Virus genome (UHGV): UHGV-0145327
Direction: 5' to 3' (one strand)
Source: a virus
Length of the DNA stretch: 35,087 nt
The notes beneath the pieces are model-generated. The model saw only the letters and a program-made list of their open reading frames with translations, was not told the DNA's origin and ran no database searches. The translations under genes and the position numbers were made by a program. Positions 20,707 through 31,240 of this stretch are shown piece by piece (the first letter of the stretch is position 1; each line of letters starts with the position of its first letter).

Positions 20707-21305
20707 GCGGCCTCACTTCTGCTGTTTCGCAGGTCTTTGAGTTTCTGCTGATACTCCGCCTTGATGGCCCTGCACTCTTCGACAGTCCAGCGATGGCGGT
20801 TATGGTTTGATTCGATTTCGTCTACTGCTTCCTGCCCGATGCGGCTAATCAGTTCGACGCGATACGGAACGAGATTCCCGCTTTTGTGCTGGTTGCACAC
20901 CACGCATTGCTTGTGAATATTGCGTTCATCAAATCGGAGTTGAGGCGCCGCAGCAGTTGTCCGGTAATGCCCGGCATCCCACTGAGCAGACGTGAGCGTT
21001 CCGCACGAGATACATGGTAAGTCGCGGTCTCTTTCTCTGATGAAGGCGTTTACAGCTTGTTGGGCTTGTTTAATCCAGTAACTGCGGGGCTTTAAGGCGA
21101 GTTTTCGAATCTTAAGTTTATCTTTCTGTTTCTGCTCCTCTCGTCGTCGTTTCTTCTCTGCTGCCTTTTCCGCTTTTTCGCGTTCTTTGCTTCGTCGTTC
21201 GAGTGCTATCTTGGTTCCACAAATCTCATTACACCAATATTGATTTTGATATTTTGGTATAAACCATTCATTGCAACATTTACATTTCCTTCGATAGATT
21301 CGCAT
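20703..21305 (-). CDS. ninG: NinG/Rap recombination protein, restarted at an internal Met (about 200 aa)
   Basis: ...[81 protein letters not shown]... matches lambda NinG as recalled; ATG at 21305 ([15 protein letters not shown]). Confidence 0.85.
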
Positions 21306-21846
21306 AAGTGCTCCTTTCGTTGCCGGAAAAATCACCGTAATACTTATCTCGGGCTTCTTCAGCAACTAGTACCGCTAACTCCAGATCATCAAAGCATCCG
21401 AAGTGTTTACTCTTGCCATGGAAACCTAGCCTAACATTCCATTTTTTCTGTCGTTTGTGCCAAGTAACTCCTCTGCAACCTGATTTGCTATTCTTTCGGA
21501 TCCTTATATTTCTTGAATTTTCTATTGGCAGGCATTCTCTTAAATTTTCTGGCCTATTGTCGGTCCTAATTCCATTAACGTGGTCAATTTGACCAGCAGG
21601 CCAACGATTATGAGTTATGTAAAAAACTAAGACGTGAGTTTTATATCTACGCCCATCTATCATGATCATTGAATAACCGTTGGAATCAAAAGTTCCAGCA
21701 ACACTATTTAATGCTATCCTTCCCTGAGTGGGAACTTTCCATCTAAATACCCCGGTAGATTTATCGAAACTTAGTAACTCAAATATCCTTTTAACAGTTA
21801 AATCTTCTCTTTTACGGTTACATCGTCTTCGCGCTGGTTTAGCCAT
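21280..21846 (-). CDS. HNH homing-type endonuclease with an AP2-like DNA-binding domain (188 aa)
   Basis: HNH core [15 protein letters not shown]; N-terminal ...[17 protein letters not shown]...; AP2-like ...[50 protein letters not shown]. Gene is visibly AT-rich against GC-richer flanks. Confidence 0.8.
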
Positions 21847-22009
21847 TGTCTTCTTCCTCGTGCATCGAACTATTCGGATCGCTCATCAGTTCTGCGCAGC
21901 AGTGCTCACACACGTGAACTTCCAGCACATGCAACTTCTGACCGCAGTTAGCGCACGTTAAAGCCCGCTCGACGCTTTCTTGTTCGTAACTTCGATTTGG
22001 GTCAATCAC
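21839..22009 (-). CDS. ninF: NinF (56 aa, GTG start), not in the ORF track
   Basis: My translation [56 protein letters not shown] matches lambda NinF as recalled; GTGA overlap with the ninE stop. Confidence 0.75.
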
Positions 22010-22188
22010 CTTGTTTTCCTCGCACGTTCTCTAAGCCACCGGATATCCCACAGGTGAGCCGTGTAATTGAAGGTTTTTACGTCAGATTCTTTTGGGATTG
22101 GCTTGCGTTTATTTCTGGAGCGTTTCGTTGGAAGGTATTTGCAGTTTTCGCAGATTATGTCGGTGATACTTCGTCGCTGTCGCCTCAT
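22006..22188 (-). CDS. ninE: NinE (60 aa from [10 protein letters not shown])
   Basis: [60 protein letters not shown]; ATGA overlap with the upstream methyltransferase stop. Confidence 0.75.
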
Positions 22189-22712
22189 GCCGCCCTCCTG
22201 ACGCCCTGCCCGATCGCCATCAATGCCGCTTTGGATACGGTAGTAAACATCCGTCGAGGACTGATGAACGGTCGCCAAATCAGCAGCATGGAACCTTTGC
22301 TGTTTCCCTTCTTCTCCAACCCAGTCGATGGTTCGATAAAATTAATCCGTCCATCAGTGATGATGCGAACTTCGTCAACACTCTCCAGAGCCTTACTGAA
22401 CCATCCTACAGACATATCCTCTGGCACAAGCATCACTACCGTCTGTCGCTGTTGTATGCACTGCTCAGCGGCTTTTTCCACCCACGGCCTGATATTGCTG
22501 TACGGTGGGTTATTCCAGATTGCACCGTGGCTTACCCACTCAGAATTGAGCGCGTCGTCGGCCTCAGTTAACCAGTGAGCGCACAGAGCATTTTTGTCGC
22601 TCGCTGCCGAATCCAGCCAGAATCCAAACTCAATATCCAGTGCATCAAAAAGCCAAAGCGGCGTTTGCCAGCAGTCCTTGTCGTGTGCTGGCGTATTTGA
22701 TTTGATAGTCAT
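22185..22712 (-). CDS. Phage DNA N6-adenine methyltransferase (about 175 aa from [13 protein letters not shown])
   Basis: NPPY catalytic motif ([14 protein letters not shown]) and the [14 protein letters not shown]-terminal region typical of the phage N6A methyltransferase family; ATGA overlap with the ninB stop. Confidence 0.8.
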
Positions 22713-23149
22713 GCAGCCCGATCTCCCCATCGCGCTTTCCATTCGAGAGCCAGTCGCGCTTCGTCTGACCACTTAACGCCACGCTCTGTACCGAATGCCT
22801 GTATAAGCTCTAATAGCTCCGCAAATTCGCTTACACGCATCCTGCTGGTTGACTGGCCTATTACAACAAAGCCATTCCCGGCAAGGTTAGGAACAACGTC
22901 CTGCTGCTTTAATGCTGCTGTAAAAACGCACTTCCAGCTTTCTGCATCCAGCCGGCGACCATGCCATTCAACCTGACGCGAAACGTCACCAAGGCAAGCC
23001 CAAAGCTTCCGATTTTGGTCTAAGCTGCGGTTGCGCTCCTGAATGGTTACTACTATTGGTTTGGTTGGGTCTGGAAGGATTTGCTGTACTGCGTGAATAG
23101 CGTTTTGCTGATGTGCTGGAGATCGAATTTCAAAGGTTAGTTTTTTCAT
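22709..23149 (-). CDS. ninB: NinB recombination protein (146 aa)
   Basis: MKKLTFEIRSPAHQQNAIHAVQQILPDPTKPIVVTIQERNRSLDQNRKLWACLGDVSRQVEWHG... is near-identical to lambda NinB as recalled. Confidence 0.9.
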   Translation of the reverse strand: MKKLTFEIRSPAHQQNAIHAVQQILPDPTKPIVVTIQERNRSLDQNRKLWACLGDVSRQVEWHGRRLDAESWKCVFTAALKQQDVVPNLAGNGFVVIGQSTSRMRVSEFAELLELIQAFGTERGVKWSDEARLALEWKARWGDRAA

Positions 23150-23342
23150 GACTTCCCTCTCTAACAGATTTCAGGTTATTCCACTCCGTTACCGCACTGC
23201 GATAATTCGCGGACGCCACAGCGGCGTGGTTAGCGCAGTAGATTTGGCACCCGTTCTCCATGTCGAATATTGTCGGTGATTTTCCGCATTTACATTTTTT
23301 GGCACGCGGTGCGTCTGAACACATTCCGTTAACGGTGTCCAT
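23130..23342 (-). CDS. Small Cys-rich hypothetical protein (70 aa) between helicase and ninB
   Basis: ATG at 23342 with a GAGGGGGA Shine-Dalgarno 5 nt upstream on the minus strand; CKCGK...CQIYCANH suggests zinc binding. Confidence 0.5.
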   Translation of the reverse strand: MDTVNGMCSDAPRAKKCKCGKSPTIFDMENGCQIYCANHAAVASANYRSAVTEWNNLKSVREGSHEKTNL

Positions 23343-23366: not shown

Positions 23367-23396
23367 AATAAAAAAGGGCTACTGTGTAAATAGCCC
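23367..23396 (-). terminator. Intrinsic terminator after the helicase gene (tR2-equivalent position)
   Basis: On the minus strand, GGGCTA-tttacacag-TAGCCC is followed by TTTTTTATT. Confidence 0.5.
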
Positions 23397-23423
23397 CTGT
23401 TATTAGCTCAGTGATGTAGATGG

Positions 23424-30020: not shown

Positions 30021-30332
30021 ATGATGATTCTGACTCTGAAAGATGAGCGTGAAATATCGCAAATAATCGCAAGTTTTACTGATGAAGATTACGAACGAAT
30101 CAACAGTGAAGTTGATCGCCTCTGCAAACGTTGCGACCCAATAAGCGAAATGCTTCGCTCATATAAACCAGATGAACACACTAAGGACGCTATCGACTGG
30201 CTGGAAGATTATGACTGTAACTATCAGGAAAAAGCCGCTGAATGGTTCTGGGATGCAATAACCGAAAGAGTTAAGGCTGAATATGCCTTCGCAATATTCA
30301 AACGCAGACACGTTTATGGAGAAGCAGCATGA
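30021..30332 (+). CDS. Hypothetical protein (103 aa)
   Basis: ORF translationally coupled to recT (stop overlaps the recT ATG); no family recognised. Confidence 0.5.
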   Translation: MMILTLKDEREISQIIASFTDEDYERINSEVDRLCKRCDPISEMLRSYKPDEHTKDAIDWLEDYDCNYQEKAAEWFWDAITERVKAEYAFAIFKRRHVYGEAA

Positions 30333-31240
30333 GCAATATCGTTGAATTCGTTAAACAGCAAGAGCAGTTATTCTGCGGAGCATTGACTGAACAGACGGTG
30401 ACATGGGCTAAGGAAAGCCAGTTTGCAATTCAGTATTTCCAGAAAAATGATTACCTGGCTAAAACAGCACTGGCAAATCCAACCAGCGCACAGAACGCCA
30501 TCATCAATGTTGCGGCGATCGGTATCACCTTAAACCCGGCTAGCAAACTGGCTTATCTGGTTCCGCGCGACGGCATGGTGTGCCTTGATATCAGTTATAT
30601 GGGATTGCTCCATATTGCAATGGAGTCTGGTGTTATCTCATGGGGTCAGGCAAAACTTGTTCATGCTAACGATACCTATGAGTCAAACGGGCTTGATAAA
30701 GCACCAACCCATAAATACAACGCCTTCGGTGATCGTGGTGATATTGTTGGCGTTTACTGCACAGTTAAGACGCCAGCAGGTGATTATCTAACGGAAGAGA
30801 TGAGTCTGGCTGAAATTGAAGCTGTAAGGAAAACAAGCAAGGCAGCATTCAGCGATAAAGGACCATGGGTAAATCACTGGAATGAGATGGCGCGAAAGAC
30901 GGTCGTAAAGCGTGCAAGCAAGTATTGGCCTAAGGCATCACGTCTTGATAGTGCTATTCACGTACTAAACGAAGAAGAAGGTGTGTGGACTGAACCAGTT
31001 ATGCCGCACAAATCAGAGGAAGATATCCGCGAAGATGAACGGAAACGACAGCAGGAAATTATGGAAAAAGCACAACTTCTTTGTGATGAAATGGCTCAGG
31101 CTGAAAACATGGATGATTTGAAGCGATATTTTGCAGAAGCATATCGCCTGACATCTGGAATGAAATTGCAGCAGAACGTACAAGCCATTTACATAGAATG
31201 CAAAGCGAAACTGGAGGTTGCCAGTGAGCAAACTGTATGA
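30329..31240 (+). CDS. recT: RecT-family single-strand annealing recombinase (303 aa)
   Basis: ...VRKTSKAAFSDKGPWVNHWNEMARKTVVKRASKYWP... aligns with the RecT signature region (...GPWVTHWEEMAKKTAIRRLFKYLP...). Confidence 0.85.
   Translation: MSNIVEFVKQQEQLFCGALTEQTVTWAKESQFAIQYFQKNDYLAKTALANPTSAQNAIINVAAIGITLNPASKLAYLVPRDGMVCLDISYMGLLHIAMESGVISWGQAKLVHANDTYESNGLDKAPTHKYNAFGDRGDIVGVYCTVKTPAGDYLTEEMSLAEIEAVRKTSKAAFSDKGPWVNHWNEMARKTVVKRASKYWPKASRLDSAIHVLNEEEGVWTEPVMPHKSEEDIREDERKRQQEIMEKAQLLCDEMAQAENMDDLKRYFAEAYRLTSGMKLQQNVQAIYIECKAKLEVASEQTV

Follow-up and report, generated by a model that had tools for sequence, protein, structure and literature searches.

The DNA analysed here, referred to below as the window, is a stretch of 35,087 nt with the character of a P22-like mosaic of E. 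coli phages, in which Kapi1, CUS-3 and E212 match in patches at ~96-97% identity. On its minus strand, inside a nin region, lies a gene for a phage N6-adenine DNA methyltransferase that is flanked upstream by ninB and downstream by ninE. Pfam matches place a DnaB-like helicase gene and an O-type replication gene upstream of the nin genes, and the order after ninE is NinF, an endonuclease with HNH_3 and AP2 domains, NinG, NinH, a metallophosphatase and a Q-type antiterminator. The features considered are as follows:

22185..22712, minus strand: orphan phage N6-adenine DNA methyltransferase gene (open reading frame and sequence; matches to PF05869, TIGR01712, phrog_111 and the PADLOC orphan-methyltransferase models; identity to VT2-Sakai orf32)
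22709..22712, minus strand: ATGA overlap of the ninB stop TGA (22711-22709) with the methyltransferase ATG (22712-22710), read from the sequence
22185..22188, minus strand: ATGA overlap of the methyltransferase stop TGA (22187-22185) with the ninE ATG (22188-22186), read from the sequence
22709..23149, minus strand: ninB, upstream neighbour, Orf-family recombination mediator (PF05772, 3.4e-54)
22006..22188, minus strand: ninE, downstream neighbour (PF05322, 3.2e-43, for 22009-22188)
22500..22511, minus strand: codons AAC CCA CCG TAC for NPPY, catalytic motif IV, residues 68-71 (sequence, alignments and AF2 model)
22611..22613, minus strand: codon for Asp34, which closes the first beta strand within the conserved LDxAA segment (invariant in both alignments; strand 31-36 in the model)
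21280..21846, minus strand: HNH_3+AP2 endonuclease gene, 188 aa, between ninF and ninG (Pfam)
23374..23398, minus strand: candidate tR2-like intrinsic terminator, located after the DnaB-like replication gene and before the nin genes (10-pair stem and T run; a pattern match only)

The methyltransferase coding sequence comprises 175 codons in 528 nt and encodes 175 residues, and the longest mechanical open reading frame reaches upstream to a GTG at 22772. We take the ATG at 22712 to be the real start because the family models (Pfam, NCBIfam) align from residues 2-4, the 528-nt gene is also the one annotated in VT2-Sakai and in RefSeq genomes, and a GGAG is found ~10 nt upstream. An earlier sequence-only reading of this DNA had described a methyltransferase with an NPPY motif in the nin region, translationally coupled through ATGA overlaps to ninB on one side and ninE on the other, and this description holds in full, as the coding sequence matches exactly, NPPY occupies residues 68-71 and both junctions can be read directly.

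Its assignment to the N6-adenine methyltransferases is likewise borne out by the profile searches. The protein matches PF05869 ('Dam') at 6.4e-65, with 218.4 bits against a cutoff of 28.1 and coverage of profile positions 1-167 of 169, and the equivalog model TIGR01712 ('phage_N6A_met') at 9.7e-80, with 265.9 bits against a cutoff of 97.05 and coverage of all 165 positions (1-165). It is also assigned to phrog_111, and its top PADLOC matches are the orphan-methyltransferase (oMTase) models. Given the PF05869 and TIGR01712 scores the reading frame is, as judged by profile similarity, no chance one, and by its sequence the product belongs, over its full length, to the phage N6-adenine methyltransferase family that includes HP1-Dam and M.EcoVT2Dam. 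In an alignment of 11 diverse phage members T17, P18, D34, L55, NPPY, R122 and F125 were invariant, and the same positions were invariant among 38 close homologues, with all of them intact here. An AF2 model built from the 38-sequence alignment (pLDDT 89.7, pTM 0.87) predicts one Rossmann-type alpha/beta domain in which NPPY follows the strand 64-68 and D34 closes the strand 31-36, so that Asp34 is a candidate SAM-binding motif I residue. A methyltransferase fold is predicted, with no separate target-recognition domain in the model.

The nearest solved folds to the model found by Foldseek are all N6-adenine methyltransferases (PCIF1/CAPAM, CamA and EcoDam), and these predicted likenesses support the class assignment. 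Closest among them is PCIF1/CAPAM, a cap-specific adenosine N6-methyltransferase, which at E 1e-4 and a query TM of 0.55-0.60 stands well ahead of EcoDam, with a likeness to the modelled protein that is at the fold level only (~14-16% identity). PCIF1/CAPAM is a eukaryotic RNA-cap (mRNA m6Am) enzyme with large extra domains. The alpha-class enzymes E. coli Dam and T4 Dam (PF02086) share with our protein the reported chemistry and target, N6 methylation of GATC, and the same general Rossmann fold; however, the structural likeness of the model to EcoDam is weak (Foldseek E ~0.03, TM ~0.34), and Pfam returned no PF02086 match in the protein at E <= 0.01. EcoDam carries a separate DNA-recognition domain, and this domain is missing from the 175-residue protein. 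Because there is no PF02086 match and the structural match to EcoDam is both weak and partial, we place the protein outside the EcoDam/T4Dam family, of which it is a functional analogue and not a member. Searches for a solved PF05869-family structure, by single sequence and by family profile, returned chance-level matches only (SdiA, Med31, Cas13b), and the family seems to have no member of known structure.

The sequence-only reading had described the target sequence as not known, and on this point it has to be corrected. The protein is identical at 175 of 175 positions to the product of VT2-Sakai orf32 (NP_050531), a 528-nt gene that likewise sits between NinB and NinE. In the 60.9-kb VT2-Sakai genome orf32 is the sole annotated methyltransferase gene, and no methyltransferase domain was found in the giant orf71 of that phage. 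Since it is the only methyltransferase gene in the VT2-Sakai record, we infer that orf32 encodes the enzyme named M.EcoVT2Dam; a locus-level mapping of that name was not found in the supplements of PMC6602927. The 2001 study that cloned M.EcoVT2Dam (Radlinska & Bujnicki, Acta Microbiol Pol, PMID 11720311) is cited in PMC6602927 and PMC7556043, and the enzyme is reported to methylate GATC. PMC6602927 itself places it among the orphan methyltransferases, with the words 'known to target 5'-GATC-3'', and PMC7556043 counts VT-2 together with HP1 among the phages with genes for Dam-like proteins. GATC is thus the reported target, taken second-hand from the literature on the identical VT2 protein, and the gene is already known, being an ordinary, widely annotated and previously characterised lambdoid-phage GATC Dam.

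The correspondence with M.EcoVT2Dam extends from the protein to the ninB-ninE position, the gene length, the orphan state and the reported target, and the same gene is also annotated in 933W-type Stx phages, HK97, 434, SfI and Sf6. What sets the present genome apart from VT2-Sakai is that it is a P22-like mosaic with podovirus-type structural genes and not a Stx phage, and that an HNH gene is inserted further downstream. More distant relatives are HP1 Dam (orf13 of Haemophilus phage HP1; 38% identity, 1e-32) and T1 Dam (ST20; 33% identity, 2e-26), whose record is annotated as similar to the phage HP2 dam protein. Both belong to the same family and size class, share the motifs T17-P18, D34, NPPY and R122/F125 with our protein, and are orphans in phage early/replication modules; they differ in having divergent sequences and other genomic neighbourhoods, and T1 Dam is also extended at its N terminus and carries an insertion ahead of the GR motif.

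An enzyme of different or relaxed specificity, not strictly limited to GATC, or a copy that has become inactive, has to be weighed against this. The 175-residue protein is modelled as a single domain, with the target-recognition domain absent from the prediction, and some prophage adenine methyltransferases are non-specific, such as M.EcoGI/GII (PMC6602927) and an enzyme of the Serratia prophage OS31 (PMC7556043). Moreover, in dam+ hosts the published methylomes cannot separate this activity from that of host Dam (PMC6602927). However, the sequence is identical to that of an enzyme reported to be GATC-specific, every invariant family residue is intact, the cited non-specific enzymes are not linked here to the PF05869/TIGR01712 family, and the methylomes of O111 strains carrying two copies of the gene gave no additional unexplained m6A motif (PMC6602927). 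On account of the identity to the characterised enzyme and the lack of unexplained m6A motifs in the O111 strains, we regard relaxed specificity or an inactive copy as very improbable.

The sequence-only reading had also stated that no cognate restriction enzyme is encoded nearby. We found no restriction-endonuclease families among the neighbours of the gene or in the early-left region of the window, nor any in VT2-Sakai or in the homologous loci of Serratia, Yersinia and Providencia, and the methyltransferase is an orphan without a restriction partner. This part of the statement stands, and the qualification it needs is the HNH_3+AP2 endonuclease gene, the only nuclease-like gene nearby, which lies 339 bp downstream of the methyltransferase gene and shares 8 nt with the end of ninF and ~26 nt with the start of ninG. 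As close neighbours that share a strand and an operon, the two genes might be thought to form a restriction-modification pair. Their distributions speak against it: a ninF-HNH-ninG arrangement occurs in 29 of 5426 complete E. coli genomes, as against 1540 with the methyltransferase gene, and HK97, 434, SfI and VT2-Sakai, like most phages that carry the methyltransferase, are without the HNH gene, with alignments ending at its edge. The HNH gene is nearly identical in the Stx1 phages AU6Stx1 and SH2026Stx1, its product falls in PHROG homing-endonuclease families whose relatives are scattered over unrelated phages in other contexts, and no defence-system match was obtained for it with the PADLOC models. 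It looks like a sporadic selfish insertion, of the free-standing homing-endonuclease type, that has invaded the nin region. Its rare and sporadic distribution, together with the lack of a defence-model match, leads us to conclude that it is not the restriction partner; a pairing of the two genes is effectively refuted by their distribution and retains next to no probability.

The methyltransferase gene itself is common. At >=95% nucleotide identity it is present in 1566 of 5426 complete E. coli genomes (~29%), where RefSeq names it 'phage N-6-adenine-methyltransferase' and where it is flanked by NinB and NinE. It is found in HK97, 434, SfI, Sf6, IME10, the mEp phages and many Stx1 and Stx2 phages, and a protein at least 99% identical is encoded in 201 phage records. 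Homologues at 60-80% identity occur in prophages of Pectobacterium, Serratia, Edwardsiella, Providencia, Yersinia, Photorhabdus and others. In the Serratia, Yersinia and Providencia prophages (65-73% identity) the stop/start overlaps with the adjoining genes are kept while the adjoining genes differ: the Serratia homologue follows DUF1367 and not NinB, that of Providencia follows a replication gene and, in 2 of 3 loci, is followed a few genes later by a Lar-type restriction-alleviation gene, and that of Yersinia lies within a block bounded by a YqaJ-type exonuclease gene and the integrase gene. A conserved linkage of NinB and Dam was therefore rejected, since the neighbours differ in these three genera; the gene keeps its place in tightly packed early operons and its neighbours vary. 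We also note several database entries (P0002, P0013, P0022 and P0117) in which the Dam domain is fused with NinE or NinB, for example a 233-aa PF05869+PF05322 protein; these gene calls probably arose through frameshifts or misassembly at the ATGA junctions and do not represent real fusions.

With regard to expression, the candidate terminator at 23374-23398 occupies a position that we take to be analogous to that of lambda tR2. Because the methyltransferase gene lies behind this tR2-like site in the early-right operon, delayed-early expression is expected, and production of the enzyme would require antitermination. Between this site and the methyltransferase gene there is also a cysteine-rich ORF of 70 aa (23130-23342, minus strand) that overlaps the ninB start by 20 nt and has no Pfam or PADLOC match. 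We considered whether it is a Lar-like anti-restriction gene, as found at the equivalent position in VT2-Sakai, and rejected this because there is no similarity and no Pfam match. In the early-left region of the window we find genes for a CI-type repressor, SieB, gp17, RecT, Gp157 and Ead/Ea22. Two of these are superinfection-exclusion genes, SieB (PF14163; 28548-29129, minus strand) and gp17 (PF17420; 29382-29693, plus strand), and they adjoin RecT (30329-31240) and the Gp157-family gene.

Taken together, we consider it very probable that the gene encodes a lambdoid-phage 'mini-Dam', namely M.EcoVT2Dam, a single-domain, SAM-dependent orphan GATC N6-adenine methyltransferase that should be made as a delayed-early protein and would supplement host Dam on replicating phage DNA. 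During lytic growth or after induction, when antitermination is active, the methyltransferase would be produced; host Dam may be too slow to keep up with phage replication, and the phage enzyme would top it up so that the GATC sites of the progeny become fully methylated. Full methylation would in turn remove the substrates for MutH nicking, and would allow the packaged DNA to resist methylation-sensitive GATC restriction enzymes of the MboI/DpnII type in the next host. Previous studies have described elements of such a scheme. Host Dam leaves the DNA in virions of P22, lambda and phage L under-methylated (PMC8022706). Unmethylated GATC is a MutH substrate, and phage yield is lowered in dam- mutH+ cells (Deschavanne & Radman 1991, as cited in PMC5014478), and the Dam enzymes of T-even phages have been suggested to guard against accidental MutHLS cleavage (PMC8541194, again citing Deschavanne & Radman 1991). 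At the same time PMC7556043 says of the part that phage Dam enzymes play in the life cycle that it 'is still not well understood', and as E. coli hosts are normally dam+ the benefit of a phage Dam may be small or conditional. The two functions put forward in the sequence-only reading, protection against restriction and gene regulation, are both plausible.

A more specific suggestion is that the main purpose of the enzyme is something other than generic protection. The tight coupling to the gene for the recombination mediator NinB could reflect a functional link: if GATC sites in replication and recombination intermediates were methylated fast, MutHLS would be kept from aborting or cutting phage recombination products. 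Alternatively, an enzyme predicted to be without a target-recognition domain might serve substrates beyond the reach of host Dam, such as single-stranded or hemimethylated replication intermediates. We think a reading of this kind very improbable.

The window contains 79 GATC sites, whereas its base composition predicts 136 and a Markov estimate gives 193 (observed/expected ~0.4-0.6), which makes GATC the second most depleted 4-bp palindrome of the window, after CTAG. Depletion of GATC is a long-known pattern in enterobacteriophages (McClelland 1984, as cited in PMC5014478), and the depletion seen here is consistent with selection acting on GATC sites in such phages. In the window it coexists with a phage-encoded GATC methyltransferase.

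The main role of the enzyme might instead be that of an epigenetic regulator in the lysogen or in the decision between lysis and lysogeny, for instance through methylation, on top of that by host Dam, of GATC sites with a regulatory function. According to Murphy et al. 2008 (cited in PMC3342100), stable lysogeny of the Stx phage 933W requires host Dam, and expression of a putative Dam methyltransferase gene of Phi24B, possibly the same gene as the one studied here, was detected in lysogen cultures, where a similar or supplementary role was suggested for it (PMC3342100). Phase variation of P22-type gtr operons also depends on Dam and OxyR (PMC8022706). However, the gene belongs to the early-right operon, which is repressed, and a terminator-like site precedes it, so that expression in a stable lysogen is unexpected, and the signal from lysogen cultures may stem from spontaneous induction. 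Host Dam moreover methylates ~99.9% of chromosomal GATC sites in lysogens (PMC6602927), which would leave little for a second enzyme, and nowhere in the window did we find three or more GATC sites clustered within 120 bp. We therefore regard a primarily regulatory role as unlikely and prefer a delayed-early enzyme that supplements host Dam during phage replication.

As a discovery the gene is of small value, given that ~29% of complete E. coli genomes annotate it and that, according to the papers citing the 2001 report, an identical protein was assigned GATC in that year. What it brings into view are two puzzles that concern the whole family and are not features of the window: what selective advantage GATC-depleted phages of dam+ hosts derive from a GATC methyltransferase of their own, and how an enzyme of 175 residues recognises GATC without a recognition domain.
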